Positions 22,118 through 63,300 of a stretch of 64,000 nucleotides of DNA are shown here, one piece after another. Where the stretch lies: NCBI GenBank assembly GCA_023246755.1, contig JAHFHU010000004.1, positions 4,214-68,213 on the forward strand, written 5' to 3'. The stretch is from Candidatus Magasanikiibacteriota bacterium (GTDB taxonomy: Bacteria > Patescibacteriota > Patescibacteriia > Magasanikbacterales > 2-02-FULL-50-9b). Every line of letters begins with the position of its first letter. Position 1 is the stretch's first letter. The position numbers and the translations under genes are program-made. The notes beneath the pieces were generated by a model that saw only the letters and a program-made list of their open reading frames with translations, ran no database searches and was not told the DNA's origin.

Positions 22118-23488
22118 TTATTTTACTAAACGTTTTTTGATCTCATCAGCCAACTCCGTAATCGAAACCCGCGTCTGTTCCATCGTGTCGCGATCGCGAA
22201 TTGTTACACATCGATCTTCAAGCGAATCAAAATCAAACGTCACACAAAGCGGCGTTCCAATTTCGTCCTGTCGACGATATCGCTTTCCGATTGATTGTGT
22301 TTCATCGTATTCAACTGTGATGTCCGCGTTACGCAACGCTTGCGCAAGCGCACGCGCAGGCACAGACAACTCTTCTTTTTTCGAGAGCGGCAAAATTGCA
22401 ACTTTCACCGGCGCCATCCAATACGGAAATCGCATCACCACGCGCACATCCTCGTCACCAACCTCTTCGTCATACGCTTCAAGCATCGCCACCAGCACCG
22501 TTCGGTCAACACCAAACGACGGTTCGATCACATGCGGAACAATTTTTTCTTTCTGATCGTCCGGATTCGCAAATTTTAACTCCGCGCCGCTGTGCTCCTC
22601 GTGTTTACTCAAATCATAGTCCGTGCGATATGCCAATCCGTACAATTCTTTTTGCCCAAACGGATAATCATATTCAACATCAATCGTGCGTTTGGAATAA
22701 AATGCACGATCTTCGTCGGAAATTTCAACGTAATGCACGCGCTCTGATTTGATGCCAAGCAGTGCGACCCATTTTTTCATCTGCTCGAGCCACAATTCAA
22801 AATGTTCCTGCCATTCTTCGGCACGAATAAAATATTCGATCTCCATTTGTTCAAACTCGCGCTGACGAAAAATAAAGTTACCCGGGGTGATTTCATTTCG
22901 AAACGCTTTTCCAATTTGCGCGACGCCAAATGGCAACCGCCGACGCGATGTTTCCACAATATTTTTAAAATCAACAAACATCGCTTGCGCCGTTTCCGGA
23001 CGCATGTACACAACCGCGGAATCGTCCTGTACCGGCCCCAGCCATGTTCGAAGCATCATGTTAAATTGATGGGGCACAGAAAAATTTTGTTTGCCGCACA
23101 CCGAACATTTCGCTGCCAAAATATTCCAACCGCCCTCTGCGCCCGCGTCCTGCACCGCGCCATCCAGATTATCAACTCGCAATCGCGCGTGACATGATTT
23201 ACATTCGACCATGGGATCGCTAAACGTCGCAACATGACCCGTCGCCTCCCACACTTTCGGATTCATCAAAAGCGCCGCGTCAATCCCAACCATATCACCG
23301 CGCCGCGTCACAAACAATTTCCACCACATCTGTTTGATATTGTTTTTGAGCTCAACGCCGAGCGGCCCGTAATCCCATGAATTCGCGAGGCCCCCATAAA
23401 TTTCAGAACCCGGATAAATAAATCCGCGCCGTTTACACAGCGAAACCAATTTTTCCATGAGTTCTGGCCCGCGCGAAAATTCACCCAT
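22118..23488 (-). CDS. glyQS: glycine--tRNA ligase (class II, alpha2 dimeric type)
   Basis: N-terminal RRGFIYPGSEIYGGLANSWDYGPLGVELKNNIK is the hallmark of dimeric GlyRS. Class II motifs. C-terminal anticodon-binding domain VAILPL. Start may be the internal MEKLV (23458). Confidence 0.85.
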   Translation of the reverse strand: MGEFSRGPELMEKLVSLCKRRGFIYPGSEIYGGLANSWDYGPLGVELKNNIKQMWWKLFVTRRGDMVGIDAALLMNPKVWEATGHVATFSDPMVECKSCHARLRVDNLDGAVQDAGAEGGWNILAAKCSVCGKQNFSVPHQFNMMLRTWLGPVQDDSAVVYMRPETAQAMFVDFKNIVETSRRRLPFGVAQIGKAFRNEITPGNFIFRQREFEQMEIEYFIRAEEWQEHFELWLEQMKKWVALLGIKSERVHYVEISDEDRAFYSKRTIDVEYDYPFGQKELYGLAYRTDYDLSKHEEHSGAELKFANPDDQKEKIVPHVIEPSFGVDRTVLVAMLEAYDEEVGDEDVRVVMRFPYWMAPVKVAILPLSKKEELSVPARALAQALRNADITVEYDETQSIGKRYRRQDEIGTPLCVTFDFDSLEDRCVTIRDRDTMEQTRVSITELADEIKKRLVK

Positions 23489-28202: not shown

Positions 28203-29654
28203 TTAATGCAAACTCTCAAATGAAATATCAAACATTGTGTCTTTCGTCACCATCGCATTCCAATCATACGCGCGATCACCAAAATTTTTTGATGATTCGG
28301 ATGGCGTGGCTGTTCGTACGTTTGTACCAAAATCAGCGTGAACCGTCAACTCAAATCCGTGCGTGCCGAGTTGTTTTTGAACAAGAAGGCCATAACGATG
28401 GTTCAAAATCTCCGCAACAACGGACGGTGCGAGCGCAATATCGATGGTCACCGTCGTGGTCTCACCCGGCTCGGTAAGAATAAACGATCCAATCACCGTG
28501 TGGCCGTCTTCTTGCGTCACATCCCACGCGCCCGGCGTTTTATCTTTGTGACTTTTCACCGAACCGGTCGCGTCCAAAAATTTTGTGTCAGCCGGAAAAT
28601 ACCACCGAGTGTACGTTCCATATCGCGTCGTACGCCAATCCAGCGTGCCTGTATTTTTATAGCGCATCGTTACCCGCCCGCGCCACTCGCCACTCGCAGC
28701 ATCCCGAAATACATCATATCGCATCGCGCGCTCCATCACCCGATCCGTTTTAAGACTGGCGAGATTTGCATCAACAAACATGACGCTGTCCGGCGTTCCT
28801 GATTTAAGTCGTCCACTCCACCCGAGCATGTCGAGATTGTTTTGAATTTTTGAATCACGATCGAAAATAATCACATGTCGTTCGTCGATGAGGCGCTCAA
28901 AATCACCAAGAACATTCCCCCATTGAAGTGGCGAAATGTGTTTGATACGCGAAACAAGTTCACTCGCGATCGCACCAATCACCGCCTTGCGCTCCGTTTT
29001 CGGAATACCTTGTTTGTGAAAATCAACCTCAACAGTCTGTTCGAGCAGGTCAGTAATATTTTCAGCAGTAAAAACTTTTCCGCCCGCAGTGACCGACCCC
29101 GTGTATTTCATAAGTGTTGTCAAAACTTCCGGCGTCACCCCAACAACCGTTTGAATCGCAGTCGCCTGCTGCCCATTCTCAAGTGTGTAAAAAGTAAGCG
29201 CATCTTGGCTCGCACGTGCAAAATCAGGCGACCAATTCGAATCACGAAAAAACCAGCGATCGATTAAATGATCTTTGATCGGTTGCGGCGCCGCGATCGG
29301 CGCAAGCGCGATTGCAGCACGATCAAGATTTTCGGTTCCATCGGTAAAAAGTGAAACCACCGCGCCATGATCAACGGTAACGACTCCGTACGAACCGATA
29401 AATCCGCCGCCCGGACGAATCTCGGTGTTATTGAGAAATAAAATGAGTATCGTGCGCGGCGTTTCCATCCCGAGCAATGCAGGGATCACCGCCGAACTCG
29501 CACCACTTCCACGGTGATCAAACGCTTTTGTTGCAACAAAATTCAACGCAGCAACATCGACGCGCGCCTGACGCACCAACCACCACGTACCATAGCCAAA
29601 TAATAAAAGTGCCCCGATGATACTACACAAAATTGTCGTGGTTCTCCGTGTCAT
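28203..29654 (-). CDS. DUF4012 domain membrane-anchored protein
   Basis: N-terminal TM, then ILILFLNNTEIRPGGGFIGSYG matches the DUF4012 core (LlqNnaElRptGGfiGsyg). Paired with GT2 as is typical. Confidence 0.75.
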   Translation of the reverse strand: MTRRTTTILCSIIGALLLFGYGTWWLVRQARVDVAALNFVATKAFDHRGSGASSAVIPALLGMETPRTILILFLNNTEIRPGGGFIGSYGVVTVDHGAVVSLFTDGTENLDRAAIALAPIAAPQPIKDHLIDRWFFRDSNWSPDFARASQDALTFYTLENGQQATAIQTVVGVTPEVLTTLMKYTGSVTAGGKVFTAENITDLLEQTVEVDFHKQGIPKTERKAVIGAIASELVSRIKHISPLQWGNVLGDFERLIDERHVIIFDRDSKIQNNLDMLGWSGRLKSGTPDSVMFVDANLASLKTDRVMERAMRYDVFRDAASGEWRGRVTMRYKNTGTLDWRTTRYGTYTRWYFPADTKFLDATGSVKSHKDKTPGAWDVTQEDGHTVIGSFILTEPGETTTVTIDIALAPSVVAEILNHRYGLLVQKQLGTHGFELTVHADFGTNVRTATPSESSKNFGDRAYDWNAMVTKDTMFDISFESLH

Positions 29655-31150
29655 AAATTTGTTTTAAATGCAGCACGTTTTTTTTGCGAAACATTAAACC
29701 CGAGATAGCGGCCAAACATGAGGCGCGTCGATGCATCGATCGCCGGCACCGCAGAAAAACAGATGAGTGAGATCGGCACAAGCACCCACTGAAGCAACAT
29801 GTAGACCCACGCGCGGCGTTTTGTTGCGTGCGGCGGACGCGGCAGCAAACGAAGCGACAGTATCATGCTACACACAAGCCCGCACATCGACGCAAACATC
29901 AGCCACTCCAAAATGTGCGGTGTATTTTGAAACAGCACCGTGCTGCGAACCGAGTCTCCCGCAACGAGTAGCGGCAATCGGCCCAGCACCAAAATAAAAA
30001 TTGATGTGGTGCACCACGAAAATTTTCCCTCCCACTGACTCCATAATCGATGCAACCGCTTGCCAAGCGGAATTTCAGGATGCAGCGGTAAATTCCAGAG
30101 CAGAAACGGAATATGCTCAACGCCCCACGCCCATCGACGCTGTTGTTTGTATAAATTGATGATGCTTTTTTTGAGTGACGGATCATTCACCGTGTCCATC
30201 GACACCGGAATATACATCGGCACGACTTCGTAGTTGCCGCCATATTTTAACCAGCACTGAAAAAAAATTCGCGAATCTTCGCTGACGATATTTTTCTGCC
30301 AAAAACCAACATCAACGAGCGCTTGGAAACTCATGCTGTGCGACGAAAATGTTACCACGAGTTCGGGACGCCCAAATCGAAATAACATAAAAAAAGTCGT
30401 ACCAAACGCCATGATGCGAAGCGGCGCCGCAGACTCCCAAATATTATTGTTATACAGCGCGACAGGTTGGAATGATGCGCGCGTTGGGTTCGGATGGTTT
30501 GCGTATAGATAGGTAAGATGTGCAAAATAATGGGGGTGAACAATCGTGTCGATATCAAACGCAGAAACAATGACGTTACGATATGAAATTCCGCGCGCAT
30601 CAAGCCATGCCTTCACGACATAACCCGCATAATGCAAGTTCGAACCCTTGCCCGGAATTTCGTCCGGCACATCTTTGGGATGCACGGTAATTATGAATGA
30701 ATAAAAAAAGTGTTCGAACTCTTTTTGTAAACGCTTTGCAAATGAATTGAAATGTTCCTGCTGTCGCTCCTCACCCGCGAGTACGATAATCATCCGCTGT
30801 GCGGGAAATGAAGAAGTCGCGAGCGCCTCAATCGTTGTCCGAACAACCGCCTCATCTTCGTTGTACACTGGTAAAAAAACGCAATGCAAATACGAATTCG
30901 ATTTTTCACCGAGTGTTGCTAATTTATCCATCCAGTTCGTTCGCAAGGTCAGGCGAAATGAACGCCAAGAAAATAATAAATAGAGAATAAAATATCCAAC
31001 ACGAAACACCCAGTACAAATCAAAAAGGATGATAAAATAAATCACCCAGAGCGGCCGAATAAAACTCAATATGGTCGCGCTTAAAAGCACGGTCCACACC
31101 AAAGCTCCGGGTAAAATTTCATAGATTCGATAGCGTGTGTAGTTGTTCAT
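29651..31150 (-). CDS. processive family 2 glycosyltransferase (cellulose/chitin synthase-like, QxxRW)
   Basis: VFLPVYNEDEAV (DXD region), QQRRWAWG (QxxRW), multiple N- and C-terminal TM helices. 499 aa. Confidence 0.75.
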   Translation of the reverse strand: MNNYTRYRIYEILPGALVWTVLLSATILSFIRPLWVIYFIILFDLYWVFRVGYFILYLLFSWRSFRLTLRTNWMDKLATLGEKSNSYLHCVFLPVYNEDEAVVRTTIEALATSSFPAQRMIIVLAGEERQQEHFNSFAKRLQKEFEHFFYSFIITVHPKDVPDEIPGKGSNLHYAGYVVKAWLDARGISYRNVIVSAFDIDTIVHPHYFAHLTYLYANHPNPTRASFQPVALYNNNIWESAAPLRIMAFGTTFFMLFRFGRPELVVTFSSHSMSFQALVDVGFWQKNIVSEDSRIFFQCWLKYGGNYEVVPMYIPVSMDTVNDPSLKKSIINLYKQQRRWAWGVEHIPFLLWNLPLHPEIPLGKRLHRLWSQWEGKFSWCTTSIFILVLGRLPLLVAGDSVRSTVLFQNTPHILEWLMFASMCGLVCSMILSLRLLPRPPHATKRRAWVYMLLQWVLVPISLICFSAVPAIDASTRLMFGRYLGFNVSQKKRAAFKTNL

Positions 31151-32163: not shown

Positions 32164-34266
32164 ATGAGCGAACGCATCGAGCTCCGCGTCCACGACTTCC
32201 TTGCTGAAGGCCGTGACGAATCAAAATCCCATGTTTTACTAGAAATTACACAGCCCGCTGCGAATGAGGTCGCAACGCATGGTCATTTTTTTGCCATCGC
32301 CGAGCTTGTGGGCGCAACTCCAAAAACCATACAAATGGTCCGCTCGTGGATCGAATTTGCAATTGAAAGTTACTACAAGAGCACCCCGACAAACATTGAA
32401 TCCCATTTTGAAACGATTCTCGGGCAACTCAACACACAAAGCTCGCTCTATTTAAAACAACACGCACACGAAGAAATTAACATTGCCGTTGCCGCAACAT
32501 GCAACTCGACGCTTTACCTCGCAACGCATGGCCGCCCGGCTGCGCTGCTCTTCTACAAAAAAAATGAGGGGTGGCAGTCACTGGACATGATTGATCCGGA
32601 TGCGGCTGATATTCCCGGCCAGCTTTTTTCAAATGTTATCAACGGTGTAATGCGTGTCGATGATCGATTTTTACTTGCGACACCGCGTGTCACCGAATTT
32701 TTTACGGCGGATCGGCTCGCGAAAATTTGTGAGGGCAAATCAATGCAAGAAGTCAATGATCACATGCTCAGAATTTTAAGCGATCTTTCGTCGGAATATT
32801 CATTTGGTGGCGTATGGCTTCGACTTGTGCGCGCATTTGATGAAACAAAAGAGATCATGCAACAAAAAATCCCGGCAGGCTCGATTGTACGACCCGAAAA
32901 AAAATCCGATGTTTCAATGGATGATCTCATGAAAAAAACGAGAACGACCGCTGAAATTCTCGCGCCCCCAATTCTGACGATTCCAAAAGATAAAATTATC
33001 ACCAACTCGTTGATGCTCATCCAATCAAACGCAATTCGCGCTGGAAAATTTCTCACGAGTGCTGTGCGTTCTACGACTCACGCGATTTCGTCAAAAAAAA
33101 GTTCACCGACCACAGAACGCATCACGCCAAAACAATTTTTAAATACAACAAAAAATAGTCTTGGTTTGCGTTTCAGTGCGATGCCAAAAAAACGAAAATA
33201 TGTTTTGGTCGCAGCAATTACGACGATGCTGCTTGCGGTAATTATCGTCGGAATCATCGCCTACTCACGATCTCGCACCGCGCAAACACAAAGTGTTCAA
33301 ACGCAACTGACGGTGATTCGCGATACACTACGCTCCGCAAATGAATCGTTCACCTATCAAAATGAATCGGCCGCACGCACGACGCTCAGCCAAGCGAAAA
33401 ATCTTTTGAGCGCACTTCCAGAATCTACCAAAACAGCGCCCGATGGCACCGCACTACAAACCGAAATAACCGATGCGACCAATAAAATTTTGCACATTAC
33501 GTCAGTCACACCCATTACTCCAGCTTTTGCATCCGCACTCACTATTCGAGATATCACGACAATGGGAACGAGCGCGATCGCACTTTCAACAACCGGTGAT
33601 ATCGTTTATTTAAAAGATGGTCTCAAAAAAATAGCGACGGTTGATGCGGCGACAGAAAAAATTTTTTCCGATGAATCGAGCAAGCGTCTGTTCGTCATGA
33701 CAAAAAATCACACATTTAAAACAATCGCGCTCGATGGAAATAAAACGACGGATGTCGTGGTAAATTTCACACCTGAAAATACTCACACAAAAATTGCAAA
33801 CATTTATTCAGACCGTCTGTATACCTATGACAGCGAAACGAATATGATCTATCGCTATGAACATGCGGGCGATGCGTATACGAACGGTAAGCGCTGGATC
33901 GTCGACAAAAGTGGAAATCCGACAAATATAGCTGATTTTGTTGTTGATAATTCGATTTGGATGCGTTCGACGACCGGTGGAATTCTTAAATATACTGCGG
34001 GAAAATTGCAAACATTTAAAATTAGTAATCTCGAACCAGACACAACACACATTGATCAAATTTTGACGAGTGCCTCAGATAAAATTTATTTTCTCGATTC
34101 ACAAAATCATCGCATCGTGCAGACCGAACGCGATGGAAAACTTATCACACAATTTGTCTATCCAGAATCCACGCACATAACGCGCATCGCTCTTGATAAA
34201 ACCGAAACGACCGCCACCGGAATTTCCGATGACGGTCGCGTCGTACAATTTGCTTTGAGCAAATAA
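32164..34266 (+). CDS. large single-pass membrane protein: cytoplasmic N-terminal domain, TM at about residue 345, extracytoplasmic beta-rich C-terminal domain
   Basis: 700 aa. TM segment YVLVAAITTMLLAVIIVGIIAY. N-terminal FFAIAELVG...LYLATHGRPAALLF...VMRVDDRFLLATP weakly resembles a PP2C/SpoIIE-like phosphatase fold. Confidence 0.45.
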   Translation: MSERIELRVHDFLAEGRDESKSHVLLEITQPAANEVATHGHFFAIAELVGATPKTIQMVRSWIEFAIESYYKSTPTNIESHFETILGQLNTQSSLYLKQHAHEEINIAVAATCNSTLYLATHGRPAALLFYKKNEGWQSLDMIDPDAADIPGQLFSNVINGVMRVDDRFLLATPRVTEFFTADRLAKICEGKSMQEVNDHMLRILSDLSSEYSFGGVWLRLVRAFDETKEIMQQKIPAGSIVRPEKKSDVSMDDLMKKTRTTAEILAPPILTIPKDKIITNSLMLIQSNAIRAGKFLTSAVRSTTHAISSKKSSPTTERITPKQFLNTTKNSLGLRFSAMPKKRKYVLVAAITTMLLAVIIVGIIAYSRSRTAQTQSVQTQLTVIRDTLRSANESFTYQNESAARTTLSQAKNLLSALPESTKTAPDGTALQTEITDATNKILHITSVTPITPAFASALTIRDITTMGTSAIALSTTGDIVYLKDGLKKIATVDAATEKIFSDESSKRLFVMTKNHTFKTIALDGNKTTDVVVNFTPENTHTKIANIYSDRLYTYDSETNMIYRYEHAGDAYTNGKRWIVDKSGNPTNIADFVVDNSIWMRSTTGGILKYTAGKLQTFKISNLEPDTTHIDQILTSASDKIYFLDSQNHRIVQTERDGKLITQFVYPESTHITRIALDKTETTATGISDDGRVVQFALSK

Positions 34267-40115: not shown

Positions 40116-40898
40116 TCACCACGCACGCACCGCTCGAATAAATGTTTTTAAAGACTCTTGCCCACCGATCGTAATACGTGGCAACGCGAGTGTGTTAGTA
40201 TAATTTTTTCCATGACTCTCGTCTGCAGCAAATGCAAAGCTCATGCCCGCTTCTGCGACCATTTTCTCCTCGCGCACACCAAATTTTCCAAATGGATATG
40301 CAAATGCCCTGACTGGTTTACCCGTTATCATCTCCAATCGATTTTTTGAATATATAATTTCTTCACGTGCATCATCATCGGAAATTTCTTGCAATCGCAC
40401 GTGCGTCATCGTGTGCGCACCAATTTCAACTAATCCCGATTCAGATAATTCGCGCAATTGTGCGTACGACATGCGCCCATTCGTTCCATCAAAGCCCGGA
40501 TTCGCAAAAACAGTAATTTTGATATTATATTTTTTAAGCAGTGGCAAAACGACGCTGTACACATCCTCTGTTCCATCATCAAAGGTGAGCATTACCGTTT
40601 TTTGAGGATACACCCCATCACCACGCTCACGTGCTACAAAAAAATCAGAGACAAACGGCGTGTTATAGTTGTTATCGGATAGATATTTGAACTCATCTTC
40701 CAATAATTTCGGGCTGATCGAAAAAGCTTTTAAATTTGGACCGCTATTTTCATCGGTCTCCATGACTTCGTGATACATTAATATCGAAGGCGTCGTCACA
40801 TTTCGTGGCGTCGCACTATTTTTTTTCGCATACACAAAAAACGGCGTTGTAACAAACACGAAACTCAACACGATAATTGCAGTTATTTCACGTTTCAC
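40116..40898 (-). CDS. polysaccharide deacetylase (NodB homology domain), secreted
   Basis: Signal peptide. VMLTFDDGTEDVYSVVLPLLKKYNIKITVFANPGF, GAHTMTHVRL, FAYPFG. Confidence 0.85.
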   Translation of the reverse strand: MKREITAIIVLSFVFVTTPFFVYAKKNSATPRNVTTPSILMYHEVMETDENSGPNLKAFSISPKLLEDEFKYLSDNNYNTPFVSDFFVARERGDGVYPQKTVMLTFDDGTEDVYSVVLPLLKKYNIKITVFANPGFDGTNGRMSYAQLRELSESGLVEIGAHTMTHVRLQEISDDDAREEIIYSKNRLEMITGKPVRAFAYPFGKFGVREEKMVAEAGMSFAFAADESHGKNYTNTLALPRITIGGQESLKTFIRAVRAW

Positions 40899-43800
40899 AA
40901 AACGATATTTACTAATCTGCCTTTAATCACGATCACGTTAGTTGGCTCCTCCCCCGCGAGCCACTCGCGTATTTTAAAAGAATTAAGCGCGAGCGTTTTC
41001 AGATCTTCTTCGGACAGAGACGCTGCGACAATAATTCGATCACGAACCTTACCATTAATCTGTACCACGAGTTCGAATGTTTCGTCAACAACCAAATCGC
41101 GATCAAACGACGGCCACCATTGCTCACACACCAATCCGTCGCCCGATATCACCGACCACACCTCTTCCGAAACATGTGGCGCCACGACATTGAGTGCGCG
41201 CACAAAAAGTTTGAGCGTGTCTTTCGTAATCGCATTCGCGCTATACACCGAATTAACAAAAGTCATGTAGTGCGCAACCGCCGTGTTAAAACTCATCCGA
41301 TCATAGTCCTCGGACACTGCTTTGATTAATTTATGAACGCCACGCGTCACCGCTTCCGGCTCCGTTTCCGCAATAAGATTTGGCAATCGCATCACGCGAT
41401 CCAAAAATCGTTTGACACCAGACACCCCTGAAACACTCCACGGCGCCGGTTCGCTAAATGGTCCGATAAATAGTTCGTAGAGTCGAAGTGTGTCAGCGCC
41501 CTGCCCCCGCACAATTTCGTCCGGATTCACCACATTCCCTTTTGATTTCGACATCTTCGTCCCATCTTCCGACATGATAAGGCCATGCGACACACGCCGC
41601 GCATACGGCTCAGACGTTGGCACAAAGCCCGCGTCGTACATAAATTTATTCCAAAAACGCGAGTACAGCAAATGCAATGTTGTGTGCTCCATGCCACCGT
41701 TGTAAAGGTCAACCGGCATCCAATATTTCAGTTTGTCCGCGGCTGCAAACGCTGTTTCGTTGTGCGCATCGCAGTATCGCAAAAAATACCAACTCGAACC
41801 CGCCCAGTTTGGCATTGTGTCTGTTTCGCGCTTTGCGGGGCCGCCACAACGTGGACATTCCGTATTCACAAATTCCGGAATCAACGCGAGTGGCGATTCG
41901 CCATTGTCTGTTGGTTCGTACTTTTCAATGTGCGGAAGTGTGAGCGGGAGTGCAGAATCAGGCAATGGGTTCCAGCCTGAAATACGCGCTGACTCAAGAA
42001 TTACCGGCTCAACGGATGCACAAAAATGTTCATCATGTGGTCGTACGATCTGCACCGCAGCTTTGTAAAATTGTCCCATCTCGCGATGGTTGTCGAGCTT
42101 AAAAATCGATTCAGTTTCATCGCCAAGCAACAACAATTCGTCAGTTGCGCCGCGCACACGCGCTGCATCAAATTTCCAGTCGCAACTCACTTCTACTTCG
42201 GGCCGTGCATGATCTCGAAATTTTGCATTCATGAACCCGTCAACAAAAATTGCTTTACGAATTTTCACCGAAAGTTTTGGTAATAATTTCTGCGCAACAA
42301 CGGTTCCCAAACTGTGTGCGACAATAATCGTGTCTTCGGTAAAATTCACCGAACGTTCTAAAAATGCAACCTGCTCATCGATGTTTGGCTGGTCAGCGCT
42401 TGGTAAATCATGCGCGACAACAGAATGACCATCGGCCTCTAGTTTTTGTTTCAGCCACGGAAAAAAATTCGTGTTAACCGATCCTTTAAATCCGTGAATA
42501 AATACATACTGATACTTTTTTGCCGCACACGCTTCGCAATGCACCAGTGGAATCGGTTCGCCCCAATAACGCTGACGCGAAAAAACCCAATCACGCAATT
42601 TGAACGTAACTTTGCGCGCGCCGCACCCCTGTTCCTCAAGCCACGCAACCATTTTTTGTTGTGCTTGCAACGTGGCAAGGCCATTCAAAAACTCTGAATT
42701 TGTATTTACACCATCTTCGATCCATAGTTCTGCTTCAACACAAACATCTTCAGCTTCTTTTGTTGCAGGATTGCTAAACACAAGCGATCCAAGTTTTGGT
42801 GGAAGCACAACTTTTTTTATTGGTAACCCAAACTTTTTCGCAAACTCGAAATCGCGTTCATCGTGCGCCGGCACTGCCATCACCGCACCCGTGCCATAGC
42901 CCGCCAAAACATAGTCAGAAATCCAAATGGGCACGCGCTCGCCATTCGCCGGATTCACCGCATACGCGCCCGTGAACACACCGGTTTTTTCGCGTGTTGC
43001 ATCTGTGCGCTCCATTTCAGTTTTGCGCGCAACCGCGGCGCGATAATCTGCTACCGCAAGATATCGCTCAAGGTGTTCCACCTGCACAACACTTTTTCCA
43101 AATATTTCAGACACTGTACACAACTTTTCTTTTACTTCGGCGATAGGCAACCACATGAAATCCGTTTTTTCAATTTCCGTTTCATCACGTGGCAATGGCT
43201 CATCACTTCCAATAACAACCAAGAAAATGGTGTCGGTGCTTCGGATATTTTTTTTACGTGTGTGATAATAGTTATGTTTAAATGTGCCCAAATTTTTTAT
43301 GATCTTCACGTTGGTGTAACCCGTTTCTTCGCGCAGTTCGCGGAGCACTGCTTGCTCAGGTGTTTCACCTTCGTCAACGCCACCGCCCGGCAAAATATAT
43401 TGTTGCGTGGGCTTATCAAATGTAATCAGCATTTTGCCATCACGCACGCACATCGCGCGAACAGTCGCACGCGGCGAACTATCTGGCAACAAATCACCAA
43501 GCTCTTGGTCGTGTGCAATTACAAGCTCATCCACCAACGCATGCTCAGGCGCAAGCGTTACGTACGTCACGCCAAACAACGTATCCGGCCGCGTCGTAAA
43601 CACACGAATTTTTTTGTCCGCGAAGCCCTCAACCGCAAAATCAACTTCCGCGCCCTCACTTTTCCCAATCCACTCCTCTTGTTGCTTTTTAATCTTCGGC
43701 AAATAATTCACGGTGTCCAAATCAGCAAGCAAACGATCCGCATACTTCGTAATTCCGATCATCCACTGTTCTTTTTCTCGTTTTTCAACCGCGCCGCCAC

Positions 43801-44329
43801 ACCGCTCACACACACCACCTGCCGCTTCTTCATTGGCCAAACCAATTTTATCTTTCGGGCACCAGTTGATCATCGTCTTTGCTTTATATGCCAAACCTGC
43901 CTTAAAAAATTGCAAAAACTGCCACTGCGTCCATTTATAATACCCCGCATCCGTCGAATTAATTTCGCGCGACCAATCAAACGACAACCCAAGCGATTGA
44001 ATCTGGCGCTTAAATGTCGCGATATTTTCATCCGTTATTTCCGCAGGCGCGCGACCGGTTTTGATCGCATAATTTTCCGTCGGCAACCCAAACGCGTCCC
44101 AACCCATGGGATATAAAACGTTTTTGCCTTGCATGCGAGCGCGCCGCGCAAGTGCGTCAAGCGCAACATACGAACGCGGATGCCCGACGTGCAGCCCCGC
44201 GCCCGACGGATACGGAAACTCAACTAAAAAATACTGTTTTGGTTTTTCTGAAAAATCTTCTGCCTTAAAAACTCCAGCCACAAGCCAGCGATCCTGCCAT
44301 TTTTTATCTATCTCGCCGTGATTGTACAT
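40895..44329 (-). CDS. leuS: leucine--tRNA ligase carrying two in-frame inserted enzyme domains: a NUDIX hydrolase inside the CP1 editing domain and a YdeN/RBBP9-type alpha/beta serine hydrolase inside the zinc-knuckle region
   Basis: LeuRS core: HIGH as PSGAGLHVGH, editing-domain TTRPDT and YGTGAVMAVPAHDERDFEFAKKFGLP, KMSKS as KMSKSKGN, and ECPRCGGPAKRETDTMPNWAGSSWYF. The protein is 1144 aa, whereas typical LeuRS is 800-880. Insert 1 spans aa about 285-410: GGGVDEGETPEQAVLRELREETGY fits Gx5Ex7REUxEExGU exactly. Insert 2 spans aa about 603-790: YVFIHGFKGSVNTNFFPWLKQKLEADGHSVVAHDLP...IIVAHSLGTVVA carries a GxSxG nucleophile elbow in a PF06821-like fold. Confidence 0.85.
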   Translation of the reverse strand: MYNHGEIDKKWQDRWLVAGVFKAEDFSEKPKQYFLVEFPYPSGAGLHVGHPRSYVALDALARRARMQGKNVLYPMGWDAFGLPTENYAIKTGRAPAEITDENIATFKRQIQSLGLSFDWSREINSTDAGYYKWTQWQFLQFFKAGLAYKAKTMINWCPKDKIGLANEEAAGGVCERCGGAVEKREKEQWMIGITKYADRLLADLDTVNYLPKIKKQQEEWIGKSEGAEVDFAVEGFADKKIRVFTTRPDTLFGVTYVTLAPEHALVDELVIAHDQELGDLLPDSSPRATVRAMCVRDGKMLITFDKPTQQYILPGGGVDEGETPEQAVLRELREETGYTNVKIIKNLGTFKHNYYHTRKKNIRSTDTIFLVVIGSDEPLPRDETEIEKTDFMWLPIAEVKEKLCTVSEIFGKSVVQVEHLERYLAVADYRAAVARKTEMERTDATREKTGVFTGAYAVNPANGERVPIWISDYVLAGYGTGAVMAVPAHDERDFEFAKKFGLPIKKVVLPPKLGSLVFSNPATKEAEDVCVEAELWIEDGVNTNSEFLNGLATLQAQQKMVAWLEEQGCGARKVTFKLRDWVFSRQRYWGEPIPLVHCEACAAKKYQYVFIHGFKGSVNTNFFPWLKQKLEADGHSVVAHDLPSADQPNIDEQVAFLERSVNFTEDTIIVAHSLGTVVAQKLLPKLSVKIRKAIFVDGFMNAKFRDHARPEVEVSCDWKFDAARVRGATDELLLLGDETESIFKLDNHREMGQFYKAAVQIVRPHDEHFCASVEPVILESARISGWNPLPDSALPLTLPHIEKYEPTDNGESPLALIPEFVNTECPRCGGPAKRETDTMPNWAGSSWYFLRYCDAHNETAFAAADKLKYWMPVDLYNGGMEHTTLHLLYSRFWNKFMYDAGFVPTSEPYARRVSHGLIMSEDGTKMSKSKGNVVNPDEIVRGQGADTLRLYELFIGPFSEPAPWSVSGVSGVKRFLDRVMRLPNLIAETEPEAVTRGVHKLIKAVSEDYDRMSFNTAVAHYMTFVNSVYSANAITKDTLKLFVRALNVVAPHVSEEVWSVISGDGLVCEQWWPSFDRDLVVDETFELVVQINGKVRDRIIVAASLSEEDLKTLALNSFKIREWLAGEEPTNVIVIKGRLVNIVL

Positions 44330-44436: not shown

Positions 44437-44991
44437 TCACCCACCATCCCGTTCAATTGTATCAAATTCCAGTTGGCCCTCCACCACGTGAAGAACACTA
44501 TCTGGCGACACAGGCGCGGCCATGTGAGCAATCGGCGAACGCGGACAGGTAAACACGATTTTTAAATCGGTACCCACCCGATCAGTCAAATCATCATGAT
44601 AGGCCGAAACCTGCCAATAATTCTGCCGGGCAATCTCCGTGAGCGCATCAAGTACAATGCCCGGACGATATTCTGTTTGCACATGCGGCTCGCAACAAGC
44701 ACGATCACCAACCCGCCCAAGTGTGAATAAGACTACGTGGAGATTGCGCACCCGACGATTGGGGCGCATCAATCGAATCGCCCGACGGACAACCCATCCG
44801 TCGTCAAATAGTTCATCAGGCAACAAACTTGCGTCAAGGGCACGCGCCGAAAGCTCTGTCAATCGCGCTCCGCCCACCCCACCCTTGGGGATTCTGCGTT
44901 TCGATACAAGATTGATTTTGTTGCCAACATCGCTCAAATCATGGACCAAAAACTGCAGAGTTATGGTCCGAATCGTCTGGTCAACAGCCAT
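44437..44991 (-). CDS. hypothetical protein (184 aa)
   Basis: Long ORF with coding-like composition. No confident family. Two LHVV motifs 73 aa apart (NLHVVLFTLG, SVLHVVEGQL). Confidence 0.4.
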   Translation of the reverse strand: MAVDQTIRTITLQFLVHDLSDVGNKINLVSKRRIPKGGVGGARLTELSARALDASLLPDELFDDGWVVRRAIRLMRPNRRVRNLHVVLFTLGRVGDRACCEPHVQTEYRPGIVLDALTEIARQNYWQVSAYHDDLTDRVGTDLKIVFTCPRSPIAHMAAPVSPDSVLHVVEGQLEFDTIERDGG

Positions 44992-56873: not shown

Positions 56874-59288
56874 TTAGCGCACAACAGCTCCGCATTTTTT
56901 CTCAAGCGCGCCCGTGACCGCGCGATGTGCCGCATCCAATTCTTCGCCGCTCAATGTATGATCATCAGCGCCATACACCACGTGAACGGCAACCGCTTTT
57001 TTATCGTCCCCGATTGCCGCGCCGCGAAAAATATCGAAAACTTCTGCGCCACGCACAAGCGGATGAGAACCGCGCGCCGCATCAAGCAATTGATGCGCCG
57101 AAATTTTTTCCGCGACCACAACCGCAACATCGCGCACCGACAATTGATACGCAGATGTCGGTCGATACACCGGTGCAGCCGCAGCCCCGGACAACAATTT
57201 CGTCAGATCAATTTCCGCAATCACCACATCGTGTTCGATTCCCATTTTGCCGCGCACGCTCGCATCAACACGCGCAACATACCCAACCGTCGTGCCCTCA
57301 CACAGCAACTCCGCAGCCGCACCACCCTGCCACCATGGCATGTAATCGTCCGGCGCACGAACTTCGATCGCATAACCCAACTCCGTGCACACACGCACCA
57401 TCGCGTCGCGCGCACGCCCGAACGCATTCTCCGCGCCCGATGATTTCCCGCCAAGCGCAATCGCTAAATGTGTTGATTGACTCGGAGCCGCGCGCTCAAA
57501 AACTTTTGCAATCTCAAACACCGCAACCTCCGCACACGTGCGTTGATTTTTTTCAACAACCTCAGCCAAATTCATCGCAAGCGTTGATGCCAAAAATGGC
57601 CGCTCGCTCGACAACGGATTCGCGAGTTCAATCAAATTATTCGGCGCGATCCCAAACAGCGCCGCGACATGCGGCCGCACATACGCATACGTGTTCACCT
57701 CGATGAGCCCCTGTCGATACGCGCACAACGTTTTAATTTTGAATTGCATGGCAACAACCGCATCTTCTTTTATGTCGTGGATCTGAATCGCGGGCAACGT
57801 GCTTGCGATATTTTCATATCCATAAATGCGCGCAACTTCTTCAACCAAATCATGCACGCCACCCATATCCTTCAAGCGAAACGCCGGAACCGTCACGCGT
57901 ATTTTTTTCGCATCCCCCTTACACACAAACCCGAGCTGCTCCAAAATTTTTTTCGCCACCGACAACTTCACGCCGACGCCAAGTGCGCGATCCATATCTT
58001 CTTGCGAAAAATCAATCACGCGCAACTTCGGCAGCGAACGTTTCACGTCGACAACCGTGCTGACGACACGCGCCGCGGGAAAAATTTCACACAGCAACTC
58101 AATCGCGCGCGCCAAACCCCACTCCGTGTTGTTCGGATCCAACCCTTTTTCAAAACGACTCGAACTTTCTGTGCGCACATGCAGCGCGCTCGATGTTCGC
58201 CGCACCGAACCTGCCGAAAAATTCGCGGATTCAATTACAATCGTGCGCGTCGCGTCACCGATCGAATGCATCGCTCCCCCGATCACCCCCGCGACCGCAA
58301 TCGCATCTGTTTTTGTCGCAACCACGAGCGCGCCCGATGGCAACTCATGTGTTTTCCCGTCGAGCGTCGCAATTTTTTCGCCGGGCTGCGCACCGCGCAC
58401 AAAAATGCTCGCGCGCCGATCGTCCACTTTCACTAAATCAAAATCAAATGCATGGAGCGGCTGCCCACCCTCAAGCATCACAAAATTGGTGACATCCACA
58501 ATTGCGCTCACCGGCCGCACGCCCGCCGCCACCAATCGCTTCTGCATCCACACAGGCGACGGCGCCGCGCCGTCAACCCCCGCCATCACCACCGCCTCAT
58601 ATCGCGGACACAATTCCGCGTCTGCAACTTTCACTTCGAGTGAAATATCTGATTTTGTTTTGATCGCCCGCGGCGCTGGCAAATTAATTTTCGCACCCAA
58701 AACCGCCCCAAATTCCCGTGCCAACCCGCGCACACCCCACAAGTCCGGCCGGTTCGACAGCGCTTTGTTATCCAATTCAAACAACACACCATTTTTCCCG
58801 AGCGCCTCGGCAAGCGGCGTCCCCGCGCGCGACGACAAACTCGATAAATCCAAAATTTCTTTTTCGCCGCCCTTGGGAAACTCGGCCGCCAACCCAATTT
58901 CATCCGCGCCACAAATCATCCCATCGCTTTTCACCCCGCGAATTTCCGTTGGCTCAAGCGTGACCAACTCGCCCGCGCCATGCCACTGCACCCGCGCCCC
59001 CACACGCGCGAGCGCAATTTTTTGCCCGACAACCACGTTTGATCCACCGCACACCACCTGCACCGGCACATGTTCTCCCGCATCAACCGAAACCACGCAC
59101 AATCGATCCGCGTTCGGATGCGGCGCAACCGCGACGATCGCGCCCAAAACCATGTGCTGGAACGCATCCGCCTCCCGCACCATGCCCTCAACTTCTGCAA
59201 CGCGCAGCGTAAATTCACGCGCAATATCTTCATCGCGCCGCCCGCCAAGATCAACAAATTCAGACAACCACTCTTTTGAAATCACCAT
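56874..59288 (-). CDS. pheT: phenylalanine--tRNA ligase beta subunit
   Basis: N-terminal MVISKEWLSEFVDL (tRNA-binding), B3/4, B5 and C-terminal anticodon-binding FDIF/VYGADD..LSGEE regions. 804 aa. Confidence 0.9.
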   Translation of the reverse strand: MVISKEWLSEFVDLGGRRDEDIAREFTLRVAEVEGMVREADAFQHMVLGAIVAVAPHPNADRLCVVSVDAGEHVPVQVVCGGSNVVVGQKIALARVGARVQWHGAGELVTLEPTEIRGVKSDGMICGADEIGLAAEFPKGGEKEILDLSSLSSRAGTPLAEALGKNGVLFELDNKALSNRPDLWGVRGLAREFGAVLGAKINLPAPRAIKTKSDISLEVKVADAELCPRYEAVVMAGVDGAAPSPVWMQKRLVAAGVRPVSAIVDVTNFVMLEGGQPLHAFDFDLVKVDDRRASIFVRGAQPGEKIATLDGKTHELPSGALVVATKTDAIAVAGVIGGAMHSIGDATRTIVIESANFSAGSVRRTSSALHVRTESSSRFEKGLDPNNTEWGLARAIELLCEIFPAARVVSTVVDVKRSLPKLRVIDFSQEDMDRALGVGVKLSVAKKILEQLGFVCKGDAKKIRVTVPAFRLKDMGGVHDLVEEVARIYGYENIASTLPAIQIHDIKEDAVVAMQFKIKTLCAYRQGLIEVNTYAYVRPHVAALFGIAPNNLIELANPLSSERPFLASTLAMNLAEVVEKNQRTCAEVAVFEIAKVFERAAPSQSTHLAIALGGKSSGAENAFGRARDAMVRVCTELGYAIEVRAPDDYMPWWQGGAAAELLCEGTTVGYVARVDASVRGKMGIEHDVVIAEIDLTKLLSGAAAAPVYRPTSAYQLSVRDVAVVVAEKISAHQLLDAARGSHPLVRGAEVFDIFRGAAIGDDKKAVAVHVVYGADDHTLSGEELDAAHRAVTGALEKKCGAVVR

Positions 59289-60360: not shown

Positions 60361-63300
60361 CTATTTTTTATCCGTATGCGGGCCGACCATTTTTTTCGCG
60401 CGCAAATACGTCATCACCACGGTCGCGATTCGATACTCAACCGGGTCCATTTGTGCCCGAATTCCGTCAAATACGTGTTCGAGCACTGCAAACATTTCGC
60501 TCGCAGATGCTGCGGGATAGCGTCGATGGAATTTTTCGGAAAATTTCATAAATGCATCCATGATTGCGGTGCCGGGCGATTTTTTCATATCAATTTTCGT
60601 ATGCAGCGACCGCTCACGCGTAAGTTCGTCATCGATAAAATGCAAAACCGCAACTTTTTCATGAATATTTTTCCAATCAATTCGATCGAGCGACGCGGGC
60701 GAATACAAAAGCACATCAAGCACATGTTCGATAATCCGCGCGTGCTGCGGGCCGGCTTCCGTATGCAAAATCGCATTTACAGCGCGCTCAACCATGCCAT
60801 TGGTCATGGCTTTAATTTCTGCAGGATTTTTTTCACGAAGCGACTGAACGATCGCCTCAAATTCCGCAGCATGCTCCGCATCAAACGTGTAGGCAATTTT
60901 TTTCGCCTCTTCAGCGCGCGCAACAAGCGATGGCTGCTGAATATGTTTCAAACGCTCTTGCTCCTCTGCGGTTTCGCCACCCGGCGTGCCGTCGAGCCCA
61001 ATCACGCGATATGCACTGCCCGCTTTATCAGCGCCTGCAGAAGTTGGCCACAAAACAAACGCAGTGCCATGCATGTTCCTCGAGTTTGCAGACAGGCCAC
61101 GCACATTAAAACCACTTGTTACGCCACTTACAAAACCGGCTGCACGCAGCATCGCTGCAACAACCAGTGCAAAATCCGCGCACACACCCGTGAATAATTT
61201 TCCGCCTAAAAATTTCGCTTTTTCTGGATCGTTGTGCGCAATCGCTGCAACACGCGATCGCATAAACGTAAACCGATCGGTGTTTGAAAGCCCATCTTTC
61301 GCATACTTCACCTCACCATTTTCAAAATCATAGTATGATTTTTCTCGAACAAACGATTCGATGCGTTCAATCTGTTCGCGCGGCGATTTTTTTTCTATGG
61401 ATCGAAGAAATGCAACACATTCGAGCGGTAAAGCGCCAATCGGAAGTTCCGGCTGCGCCTGTGCATCAGCGGCGCGCCGCGCATGTGCCCACTGCCGGCC
61501 AAGTCCGTCACGCTCGGCTGCTGAAATGTCTTGCGGCACTGCAGACACCGCGCTTCTGCGCAGTGAATACACAATTTTAGCCGCGCCCTTTGGCGGCATC
61601 ACTGTTGGAATGCCGCCATGCATCGTAACCAAAAGCGGCTCCGCGGATTCTACCCCATATGAATCAATTGCTTTAACACGCGCCGCAATAATCTCTGATC
61701 CGATCCTAAATGGTAACACGATTCGACCATTAGCCCCGTTGTGTAGATGAACGGTCATCGTTGTTTCAACAACAGGTTCTTCAAGCTCAGGCGCGATTTC
61801 AAATGCTTGTTTTGGTGTTTTCCATATTTTATCCACCTGATCATATTCAGTGTACAAACCCGTTGCGAAAAATCCATGCGTTGGTTCCCGAAACGAAACT
61901 AAATCTTTGCCACCACCATCTTTTGGGTCTCTACCCCAATAATTGGTGTCGCTCGAAAAATCAACTGCATCATCGCTACCGTGTGCCCGATCCTGCCACG
62001 CTCTCTGCTTCTTCGCTGCTTCCTGCAGTCGAATTGCTGCAACTTCTGGGGCAATGAGATTCACGATTCGCTCTGCAAGTTGATGATCTCTTCCCACAGA
62101 TTTTGCGGGCATTGTTCGAAACAATTCTTTTGCAAGCGGAACATTGCGCGCAGCAGAACGAACCACATCCATAATCCGCCTCACAAACACATGATTTGTT
62201 TCAAGCTGACCGGTAAATTCATCGATCCGCGCTTGCAAGGACATGTTCGATCGATCCTGCTCCGGATGCACGCGATTGAACTCCTCAATAAATCCGGTAA
62301 CATTCGCTTTCGTTGGTTTAAGCGCTGTGTTGAGCAAATCCAATTTTTCTTGTTCCTGCGGCGTGAGTTCTGATTTTGCATCTTCTACATTTTCAAATTC
62401 GTCGAGTGTTGCGATGCGCCACCTGCGTCTTCCGCCATTCCCGAGCTGTTTCAAAAAAACACTACACCGAGTAACCTCCAAAGAAATTAAATCTTTATCG
62501 TCAAGCACACTTTTGATATGCTTTACCACAGTTGCTCCATCTTTCTCAAACGTAACCACGAAGCCTTTTTGTGAACTATCATTTGCTAGAGTTAAAAACC
62601 CACCCCCAAAAAACACAGACCGACCAAAAGATGTATGTTGGACCCCATCTGCAGATAATGTACAATTCAAACCACCGCGATCAGAATTCACAGACCATGC
62701 AACAAAGTCATCTATTGAATCTGGTATGCACAACGAAGTGTACCAAAAAAAGTTGAATTCAAGCATAGTCTCAAACGCTGTCGACTGTACGCGTGTGCGA
62801 TAATTTTTTTTGTCGCCCATTTCAACACACACACAATTCACGACCCCTTGTTGATTTTTATTGTTGTAATCATAAAAAACAAACACGACAACATTTCCTT
62901 TTTGTTCAGATTTAACATAATTACCCAAATTTTTATTCTCGAGAGGAATGTCGTACTCGTTCGCGTACACATGCTGACCATCTGACAAATTCCTAACCAA
63001 AAAATCGGTCTCTCCATAACGCACAACACCCTTCACACCCCTTTGTTCTTCCAATTTCAACCTCAGCAAATCCTTTTTTTGGCCAGTTTCTAGATCGTAT
63101 GCTCTTAACATGCCCCCGTCGCCGATCTCGTAAAACACAGAATTGATAACCTGTTCGTACACGTATTTGTGCGTCTCAGGCACCGTTGTTTTTTTTTGAT
63201 TCTCGAGATCAAAAATAAAACTTGAATACCTGTTGGGGTTGTCCGAGTAAAACTTGAGTAGCGTGTTACTTTGTTCTAGTCGTTCTATGTGAGGACGCCC

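Follow-up and report, generated by a model that had tools for sequence, protein, structure and literature searches.

Two hydrolase domains embedded in the leucyl-tRNA synthetase of a Candidatus Magasanikbacteria genome and their distribution among Patescibacteria

The leuS gene in a 64,000-nucleotide stretch of contig JAHFHU010000004.1 (positions 4,214 to 68,213, assembly GCA_023246755.1; hereafter the window) encodes a leucyl-tRNA synthetase (LeuRS) that carries two inserted hydrolase domains in addition to the parts of the bacterial synthetase. The CP1 editing domain houses a Nudix module, and a serine hydrolase of the YdeN/RBBP9 type interrupts the second zinc knuckle. Both are apparently complete and catalytically competent modules, their activity being predicted from the retained catalytic residues. 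The protein is a member of a large, mosaic family of Patescibacteria LeuRS enzymes, in which at least four loops serve as landing sites for accessory enzyme domains. With moderate confidence we favor the interpretation that the modules are autonomous, tethered house-cleaning or metabolite-repair hydrolases, for which LeuRS would provide a permissive, constitutively expressed scaffold.

The leuS open reading frame (ORF) occupies positions 40895..44329 of the (-) strand, starts with ATG and is unbroken over its 1144 codons, as had been claimed in the initial annotation of the window. The 1144 amino acid (aa) product scored 927.5 bits with the NCBIfam model leuS_bact (TIGR00396; equivalog cut-off 548.4), and a Pfam scan detected the catalytic, editing and anticodon-binding domains of LeuRS together with NUDIX and Ser_hydrolase. 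Thermus thermophilus LeuRS was matched by phmmer with an E value of 8.5e-208. When the two proteins were aligned, residues 2-272, 426-602, 787-935 and 924-1143 corresponded to T. thermophilus residues 4-274, 280-443, 445-594 and 636-875, respectively, and two segments of about 150 and 184 residues, each replacing a few residues, had no T. thermophilus counterpart. This alignment confirmed that the excess length, about 330 residues, resides in two discrete in-frame inserts; the coordinates first proposed for them (about 43100-43477 and about 41960-42523) proved right within about 40 nucleotides (nt) and were refined to 43070-43513 and 41972-42523. A full-length AlphaFold2 (AF2) model had a predicted local distance difference test score (pLDDT) of 82.8 and a predicted TM-score (pTM) of 0.75. 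In Foldseek searches the model reached target TM-scores (TMt) of up to 0.84-0.85 with the LeuRS-tRNA complexes of Escherichia coli and A. radiobacter, and 0.79 with the T. thermophilus enzyme (2bte).

All parts of the synthetase are intact: the HIGH and KMSKS motifs, the CP1 editing site, two zinc knuckles, and the anticodon-binding and C-terminal domains. The HIGH-type motif of the synthetic site is LHVGH (residues 46-50, 44180..44194; this and all further features of the gene are on the (-) strand) and the KMSKS loop comprises residues 925-929 (41543..41557); both conform to the class I signature. The CP1 domain contains the T-rich editing motif TTRPDT (residues 245-250, 43580..43597) and the motif GTGAVMAVPAHDERD (residues 479-493, 42851..42895) with D490 and D493. 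The second zinc knuckle consists of HCEACA (residues 597-602, 42524..42541; C598 and C601) and CPRCGG (residues 825-830, 41840..41857; C825 and C828). In an alignment of 50 full-length sequences (A3) the HxGH residues, KMSKS, TTRPDT, the GTG...HD.RD motif and three of the four knuckle cysteines were invariant. The 120 best-matching LeuRS proteins, all of the Patescibacteria type, served as our survey sample. HGH and KMSKS were kept in 116 of these relatives, the editing residues were intact in 119 independently of insert content, and the CCCC knuckle was complete in all 47 that carry the hydrolase in the knuckle. Because the synthetic and editing residues are intact whatever the inserts, the latter are additions to the LeuRS functions, not replacements. 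A substitution of the hydrolase for a lost CP1 editing site was ruled out by the same count of 119. No second leuS was found within the 64-kb window. The ORF is probably the housekeeping bacterial-type LeuRS gene of a Candidatus Magasanikbacteria genome (Patescibacteria, candidate phyla radiation), synthetase activity being predicted from sequence.

Insert 1, at what we call site A, comprises the Nudix module and its linkers (residues 273-420, 43070..43513); its boundaries follow from alignments with the T. thermophilus enzyme and with close relatives that lack the insert. It lies between TTRPDT and GTGAVMAVPAHDERD, both intact, and is therefore inside CP1 without replacing it, as originally proposed. 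The Nudix assignment was borne out as well: scanned alone, the insert matched Pfam NUDIX (PF00293) over residues 288-401 with 71.3 bits (E 1e-19, cut-off 21.1). The Nudix box, GGVDEGETPEQAVLRELREETGY (residues 316-338, 43316..43384), follows the pattern GX5EX7REUXEEXGU and includes the catalytic residues R330, E331, E334 and E335. Its G, E, RE, EE and G positions were invariant among 26 diverse LeuRS-embedded Nudix domains; the invariant residues are G316, E322, R330, E331, E334, E335 and G337 in protein numbering, and G47, G48, E53, R61, E62, E65, E66 and G68 in the numbering of the alignment. Modeled alone by AF2, the module adopted a confident Nudix fold (pLDDT 85, pTM 0.80), for which Foldseek returned a probability of 1.0 to many Nudix structures. 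Within the full-length model the pLDDT of this region was only 34-69, the alignment at site A being limited to two sequences.

As to the substrate of the Nudix module, the top matches of the Nudix profile search were 1f3y and 3i7u, two hydrolases of diadenosine tetraphosphate (Ap4A), at a distance of about 1 bit above generic MutT/Nudix entries. The module remained below every NCBIfam equivalog cut-off: the MutT 8-oxo-dGTPase model (TIGR00586; 36.9 against a cut-off of 97.9) and the RppH model (NF001938; 40.8 against 116) were both rejected. An aromatic pair is present in the X-loop (NYYH, residues 353-356, 43262..43273), Y354 and Y355 being at positions +16 and +17 from the box, and this aromatic column was conserved in the alignment of embedded Nudix domains. 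Since a tyrosine in the Nudix X-loop correlates with hydrolases of diadenosine polyphosphates (ApnA) (PMC5389931), we regard the aromatic residue as a lead, and a lead only, toward ApnA hydrolase activity. Taken together, sequence and model comparisons place the module nearest to Ap4A-hydrolase/RppH-type enzymes, by very small margins, with a correspondingly predicted substrate.

Insert 2 (site C, residues 603-786, 41972..42523) separates HCEACA from CPRCGG. The initial annotation had correctly placed it within the zinc knuckle; its statement that the knuckle is just before KMSKS did not hold, the KMSKS loop being about 100 residues further on. Identification of the insert as a YdeN/RBBP9-type hydrolase was upheld: the insert alone matched Pfam Ser_hydrolase (PF06821) with 42.3 bits (E 1e-10, cut-off 22), although the match covered residues 609-701 and profile positions 2-93 only, and an insert-derived profile aligned with Bacillus subtilis YdeN (1uxo) over its full length (residues 5-171, E 1.8e-33) and matched human RBBP9 with an E value of 1e-20. 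Among 23 diverse hydrolase inserts the serine of the nucleophile elbow AHSLG (S673, 42305..42319), the predicted triad histidine of DEHFC (H768, 42020..42034) and the histidine of the HG oxyanion motif (H612-G613) were invariant. The predicted triad aspartate, D737, lies in the acid loop GDETES (42107..42124); in every one of the 23 aligned inserts an Asp was found within a four-residue loop, with no single fixed column. The insert thus contains the GxSxG elbow, the oxyanion motif and a Ser-Asp-His triad, the Asp being assigned by loop and not by column. In the full-length AF2 model the hydrolase was the best-modeled region outside the core (pLDDT 89-98). Free-standing YdeN/RBBP9 homologues exist in Patescibacteria, and the genomic contexts of stand-alone YdeN-type hydrolases were uninformative. 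The aminopeptidase RBBP9 depends on a free alpha-amine; it cleaves aminoacyl-7-amino-4-methylcoumarin (aminoacyl-AMC) substrates and N-terminal residues (PMC8866121). It is also reported, as cited in PMC7730578 (Shenoy 2020), to activate valacyclovir, the L-valyl ester of a nucleoside analogue. By these reports, alpha-aminoacyl esters and amides are compatible with the chemistry of the family.

For a sequence assembled from a metagenome it could be asked whether the gene is an assembly chimera, a frameshifted pseudogene or a mis-called ORF. An identical 1144-aa protein was found on two contigs, one in NCBI (68.8 kb) and one in ENA (ERZ27279942). A relative that is 77% identical (P0002; P and L numbers are our own identifiers) carries both inserts at matching positions, is followed by the same genes (polysaccharide deacetylase, ComEC) and was present in three independent assemblies (NCBI GCA_943355025.1, an ENA assembly and a Logan assembly). 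The architecture was seen in five assemblies of two species-level lineages, which speaks against an assembly artefact; the initial annotation had judged an annotation artefact unlikely on the strength of the continuous frame. Between the two proteins the proportion of nonsynonymous differences (pN) was 0.13-0.17 in the inserts and 0.065-0.18 in segments of the LeuRS core, with saturated synonymous sites (pS 0.62-0.76). Ratios of substitution rates (dN/dS) were set aside on account of this saturation and of an undefined dS for one segment, and only pN was compared. A pN that is no higher in the inserts than in the core, combined with saturated pS, implies that purifying selection on the inserts is comparable to that on the essential core. 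With a continuous ORF, independent assemblies and dozens of relatives of similar design, a pseudogene was ruled out, and the probability of any artefact of this kind appears negligible.

The closest genomes were metagenome-assembled genomes (MAGs) of Candidatus Magasanikbacteria and Uhrbacteria. LeuRS length among the 120 best matches ranged from 763 to 1366 aa; 83 had at least one insert and 37 had none. Multiple alignment revealed four recurrent insertion sites: site 0, ahead of the T-rich motif, occupied in 16 proteins; site A, where only the window LeuRS and P0002 carry an insert; site B, after the editing motif (residues ~510-526 in the window protein), occupied in 58; and site C, in the zinc knuckle, occupied in 48. 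Insert families were defined by all-against-all comparison of the inserts. The hydrolase family had 52 members (47 at site C, four at site 0 and one at site B) and the Nudix family 51 (49 at site B, two at site A). Both occurred together in 24 proteins, 22 being expected if they were independent. Ten inserts, all at site 0, were Ham1/ITPase-like (PF01725, ~206 aa; P0009, P0042, P0044, P0050, P0052, P0055, P0057, P0058, P0095 and P0111). Ham1-bearing LeuRS proteins often also contain the Nudix and the hydrolase, and with three accessory enzyme domains they reach 1188-1366 aa. Three S-adenosylmethionine (SAM)-methyltransferase inserts were found at site B (P0003, P0006 and P0007). A HAD phosphatase (P0110, site B), an ASCH domain (P0088, site 0) and a DUF559/Vsr-like endonuclease (P0063, site 0) occurred once each, and four further insert types had no Pfam match (P0045/P0053, P0090, P0018 and P0063 site C).

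Insert identity tracked the identity of the host cores (Mantel r 0.60 for the Nudix and 0.64 for the hydrolase, p=0.001), and retention of inserts spanned core identities down to about 45%. Inserts and host gene are inherited together, and purifying selection maintains the inserts. Their presence also accounts for the downgrading of leuS genes by annotation pipelines to generic or misleading names, such as 'class I tRNA ligase family protein' or even 'alpha/beta fold hydrolase'. The initial annotation had allowed that the inserts might turn out to be common and already annotated; common they are, and annotation goes as far as some names of the JGI pipeline that include the hydrolase ('leucyl-tRNA synthetase/predicted alpha/beta hydrolase family esterase'). 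Many species-representative MAGs with Patescibacteria-type LeuRS (L008-L015, L017, L018, L021, L022, L027, L028 and L034; third party annotation (TPA) assemblies) bear the title 'uncultured Gammaproteobacteria bacterium', which looks like a placeholder or wrong taxonomy.

Some relatives contain one module more than once, the Nudix two or three times or the hydrolase twice (P0214, 1140 aa; P0215, 941 aa; P0216; P0244). Copies within one protein were only 33-57% identical, which dates the duplications as old. In P0214, P0215 and P0216 one Nudix copy has no canonical box, and in P0244 the second hydrolase has no nucleophile elbow. These sequences suggest that the extra copies are old duplications that subsequently decayed into pseudo-enzymes.

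To follow the history of the Nudix module, a profile was run exhaustively against 1.84 billion cluster representatives. This search superseded a word-indexed search with the Nudix insert alone, which had yielded 12 weak stand-alone matches (the best at 53 bits) and missed the LeuRS-embedded relatives. The clade was represented by 88 cluster representatives at E<=1e-30, mostly LeuRS; of the best 149 matches about 110 were LeuRS or LeuRS fragments and about 25 were genuine stand-alone proteins of 143-207 aa. The module thus belongs, as judged by these profile matches, to a clade that is found mostly inside LeuRS. It was 43-58% identical (up to 129 bits) to the site-B Nudix domains of related LeuRS proteins, and its nearest Nudix relatives sit in its nearest Nudix-bearing hosts. 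Two close relatives, L016 (85% identical over the first 332 aa) and P0003/L007 (76% identical), have a short canonical linker at site A and no Nudix there. In L094, a relative from a metagenome, the module occupies site B and is flanked by the linkers seen in the window protein ('EQLGDRLPES...' and '...IEKTDFMWLP...'); the two modules, linkers included, aligned over their whole length with 51% identity and one gap. A scan of JGI metagenome contigs produced no further site-A example. Occupation of site A in the window LeuRS and P0002 only, with the same module and linkers at site B elsewhere, points to relocation within the gene. The simplest reading is that a Nudix resident in LeuRS was passed on vertically and that, in the lineage of the window protein and P0002, the whole block changed its place from site B to site A.

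Relocation of a module together with its linkers, the presence of up to three Nudix copies in one LeuRS, and the endonuclease-like DUF559 insert of one relative are features that might be expected if the inserts were in-frame mobile cassettes, that is, selfish or semi-autonomous blocks of DNA hopping between permissive leuS loops, their enzymology being incidental. We consider this very unlikely. The junctions of insert 1 (...DELV|IAHDQ...VVQV|EHLER...) and of insert 2 (...CEACA|AKKYQ...SARIS|GWNPL...) showed only short, chance-level repeats, and no direct or inverted repeats bracketed either insert. An intein or other splicing insert was ruled out, there being no splice junction residues and no Hint or intein match in Pfam. 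Furthermore, the inserts co-diverge with their hosts, an identity of only 33-48% between copies in one protein makes the duplications old, and the catalytic residues are invariant and under purifying selection.

Outside LeuRS, members of the Nudix clade were found in diverse surroundings. One stand-alone member (P0229, on a 53-kb contig of JGI 3300071358) is directly upstream of a Nudix-bearing leuS with a gap of 1 nt. A second (P0252, L088/L089) is 4 nt downstream of fpg/mutM, outside any leuS context. A third (P0256, L090) lies in a co-directional series of genes for MetRS, TatD, the Nudix itself, a YfbR-like HD protein, another Nudix and LeuRS. A further stand-alone member is the direct neighbor of another Nudix. 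The 145-aa Nudix next to leuS in L090 was rejected as a clade member (23.6 bits with the clade profile). The clade also has a non-LeuRS host, P0302 (1318 aa), in which a GNAT domain, two Nudix-profile stretches (Pfam itself counts one NUDIX stretch), another GNAT and an M17 (leucyl) aminopeptidase domain follow each other. A free-standing protein of 317 aa (P0195, L005 6001-6954), in which a YdeN-type hydrolase is fused to a Nudix, was considered as a sign that the two modules act together. This was dismissed, as its Nudix is outside the LeuRS clade (20 bits compared with at least 123), and such a partnership is further undercut by the independent occurrence of the two inserts in LeuRS.

In the mechanism that we favor, two self-contained hydrolase modules are seated in permissive surface loops of LeuRS, a Nudix pyrophosphohydrolase (273-420) in CP1 and a Ser673-Asp737-His768 hydrolase (603-786) in the second zinc knuckle. 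Diffusible small molecules would be the substrates of both: for the Nudix most likely a dinucleoside polyphosphate or a compound of the nucleoside triphosphate (NTP) type, in the manner of Ap4A hydrolases or RppH, and for the other hydrolase most likely an alpha-aminoacyl ester or amide whose amine is free. LeuRS would mainly be a constitutively expressed, insertion-tolerant scaffold, neither module being needed for charging or editing of tRNA-Leu. Arguments that LeuRS does not need the modules are their mosaic presence and absence among close relatives, the occupation of the same sites by unrelated enzyme families, the independent occurrence of Nudix and hydrolase (24 with both, 22 expected), and the intact editing site in 119 of the 120 proteins. 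The occurrence of clade members outside leuS contexts, as in P0302, and the decay of extra copies (P0214, P0215, P0216 and P0244) likewise argue against an obligatory role in LeuRS.

Several observations weigh against this interpretation. The Nudix clade is overwhelmingly in LeuRS (~110 of the top 149 matches) and one of its stand-alone members is directly upstream of leuS, both of which could mean functional coupling. Retention over deep divergence (core identity down to ~45%) would be equally expected from a coupled function. The Nudix was kept even after its relocation, and the chemistries of both families resemble those of side-products of aminoacyl-tRNA synthetases (aaRSs); we count both points in favor of a functional tie. 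In addition, generic MutT/Nudix entries score only about 1 bit below the matches on which the assignment of the Nudix subfamily depends, and the best fold match, 2azw, has no known function.

The main alternative, put forward in the initial annotation and in our view possible but less likely, is that the modules clear by-products of their host; the nearest neighbors of the two modules lend it modest support. The Nudix would degrade Ap4A or other ApnA compounds, or released (mis)aminoacyl-adenylate, the hydrolase would cleave aminoacyl esters, and tethering would make the clearance local. AaRSs are a classical source of Ap4A, and the near confinement of the Nudix clade to LeuRS and the position of P0229 would suit such a role. 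So would the Ap4A hydrolases among the nearest profile and fold neighbors of the Nudix (1f3y, 3i7u and 4mpo), the X-loop aromatic residue shared with ApnA hydrolases, and the aminopeptidase and reported valacyclovir-activating properties of RBBP9. Harder to explain in this way are the 37 insert-free proteins among 120 close relatives, the exchange of the Nudix for a methyltransferase in relatives as close as P0003 (76% core identity), the mutual independence of the two modules and the frequent degeneration of second copies. Clade members beside fpg and within the GNAT/M17-peptidase protein also speak against it, as does the fact that the leuS-adjacent Nudix of L090 and the Nudix of P0195 are outside the clade.

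A closer coupling, in which the hydrolase or the Nudix would be a third or fourth editing site acting in cis on bound mischarged tRNA-Leu or on non-cognate adenylate, seems unlikely. Both modules are in domains that move around the acceptor end of the tRNA (CP1, and the catalytic-core insertion with the zinc knuckle), and the chemistry of the hydrolase family would suit an aminoacyl ester. However, the CP1 editing residues showed no complementarity with insert presence, and the location of the hydrolase at three sites (0, B and C) and of the Nudix at four or more, depending on lineage, is difficult to square with an exact position along the path of the tRNA. Known trans-editing domains (tRNA_edit, tRNA_SAD, Tyr_Deacylase) were absent from the Pfam scan of the protein at E<=0.1, which also gave no YbaK or Dtd match.

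By analogy, the modules might protect LeuRS from antibiotics that mimic aminoacyl-adenylates, with the hydrolase or the Nudix cleaving leucyl-nucleotide mimics. MccF and MccE, which confer immunity to microcin C, are the model for such a function. LeuRS is a natural antibiotic target, as illustrated by its structure with the toxic moiety of agrocin 84 (PDB 3zgz) and by the immune AgnB2 LeuRS of the producer (PDB 5ah5). Moreover, NCBIfam contains an IleRS with an embedded GNAT domain (NF040702), and cleavage of aminoacyl-nucleoside esters is attributed to the hydrolase family by a citation in PMC7730578. Analogy is all that speaks for this idea, to which we attach very little probability: the insert types are too varied (Ham1, methyltransferase, HAD, ASCH), and no immunity or biosynthesis genes were found nearby.

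The leuS stop codon overlaps the GTG start of a downstream polysaccharide-deacetylase gene (40116-40898) by 4 nt (40895-40898), and ComEC and XseA follow on the same strand, in the same order as beside P0002; leuS is on these grounds probably co-transcribed with the downstream genes. Between the thioredoxin gene and leuS there is a 184-aa ORF (44437-44991 (-)) without Pfam match; the gene calls of the ENA contig include it too. On the strand opposite leuS, an ORF of 417 aa (42863-44116 (+)) is a shadow ORF of the mechanical ORF list and not a gene. Two other synthetases are encoded in the window, the PheRS beta chain (PheT, 804 aa; 56874-59288 (-)) and a 456-aa class II synthetase (22118-23488 (-)). 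Both have canonical architecture without inserted domains, which indicates that insertions are not a general trait of the aaRSs of this genome. Four large ORFs, of 1206, 700, 499 and 482 aa (60361-63981 (-), 32164-34266 (+), 29651-31150 (-) and 4824-6272 (-), respectively), had no Pfam family at E<=1e-5; the first of these ends near the window edge.

The initial annotation had presented the protein as a three-enzyme fusion that is not known to have been described. A full-text literature search found no description of LeuRS with Nudix or alpha/beta-hydrolase inserts, and in this respect the claim stands; the fusion is not singular, since inserts are common in Patescibacteria LeuRS (83 of 120). 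The two-hydrolase design is thus common in the lineage and apparently undescribed. The phenomenon is lineage-wide and not unique to the window, and would surprise an aaRS specialist: modules have been retained under selection over a large part of the Patescibacteria, with the same module in different loops depending on lineage. Should the modules act on by-products of the synthetase, metabolite repair or quality control would be built into the enzyme in a way that is new. Should they be house-cleaning enzymes of unrelated function, they would exemplify how a streamlined genome combines housekeeping enzymes in a single constitutive gene, and the insertions would map insertion-tolerant LeuRS loops useful for protein engineering. 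A bolder and rather improbable generalization is that LeuRS of Patescibacteria is a multi-active-site machine, in which the modules would be re-seatable cassettes serving as dedicated clearance or proofreading sites for Ap4A, for aminoacyl-adenylate or mimic toxins, and for aminoacyl esters. If true, this would be an unrecognised layer of translational quality control in ultra-small bacteria.

With canonical bacterial LeuRS (T. thermophilus 1h3n/2bte; E. coli 4aq7) the protein shares the order of HIGH motif, first zinc module, CP1 editing domain with its T-rich and GTG..HD..D motifs, CxxC...CxxC knuckle (as in T. thermophilus), KMSKS, anticodon-binding and C-terminal domains. It differs by about 330 extra residues in the form of two catalytic-domain inserts, and it has no counterpart of T. 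thermophilus segment ~595-635, the leucine-specific domain. The Nudix module has the box, the X-loop aromatic residue and the fold (query TM-score (TMq) 0.65-0.70, probability 1.0) in common with the Ap4A hydrolase/RppH group (Aquifex 3i7u, Chlamydia CT771 4mpo, Bdellovibrio RppH 3ees); in contrast to these enzymes it is embedded in CP1, and with just 20-25% identity to them it is equally near to the uncharacterised 2azw. Insert 2 shares the HG oxyanion motif, the GxSxG elbow and the catalytic His with YdeN (B. subtilis, 1uxo) and RBBP9 (human, 2qs9), from which it differs by being embedded in another enzyme, between the halves of a zinc knuckle; its subfamily has no equivalent of a ~15-residue segment found in many other members, and its acid residue is in a 'GD' instead of an 'SxDD' context. 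The free-standing trans-editing factors AlaX, YbaK/ProXp and Dtd have no sequence or fold relationship to the inserts and would be functional analogues only, with hydrolysis of an aminoacyl ester as the common reaction if the hydrolase acts on aminoacyl-tRNA. AaRSs with extra domains are well known, mostly from eukaryotes and mostly as non-catalytic appendages, whereas in the present case the editing domain and the zinc knuckle of an essential bacterial synthetase each enclose a complete catalytic domain. The family 'isoleucine--tRNA ligase, N-acetyltransferase domain-containing' (NF040702), known to us from its family entry, similarly combines a class Ia synthetase with an unrelated small-molecule enzyme domain; both the synthetase and the domain are different, and the window LeuRS scored 63 bits with that model, compared with a cut-off of 1999.

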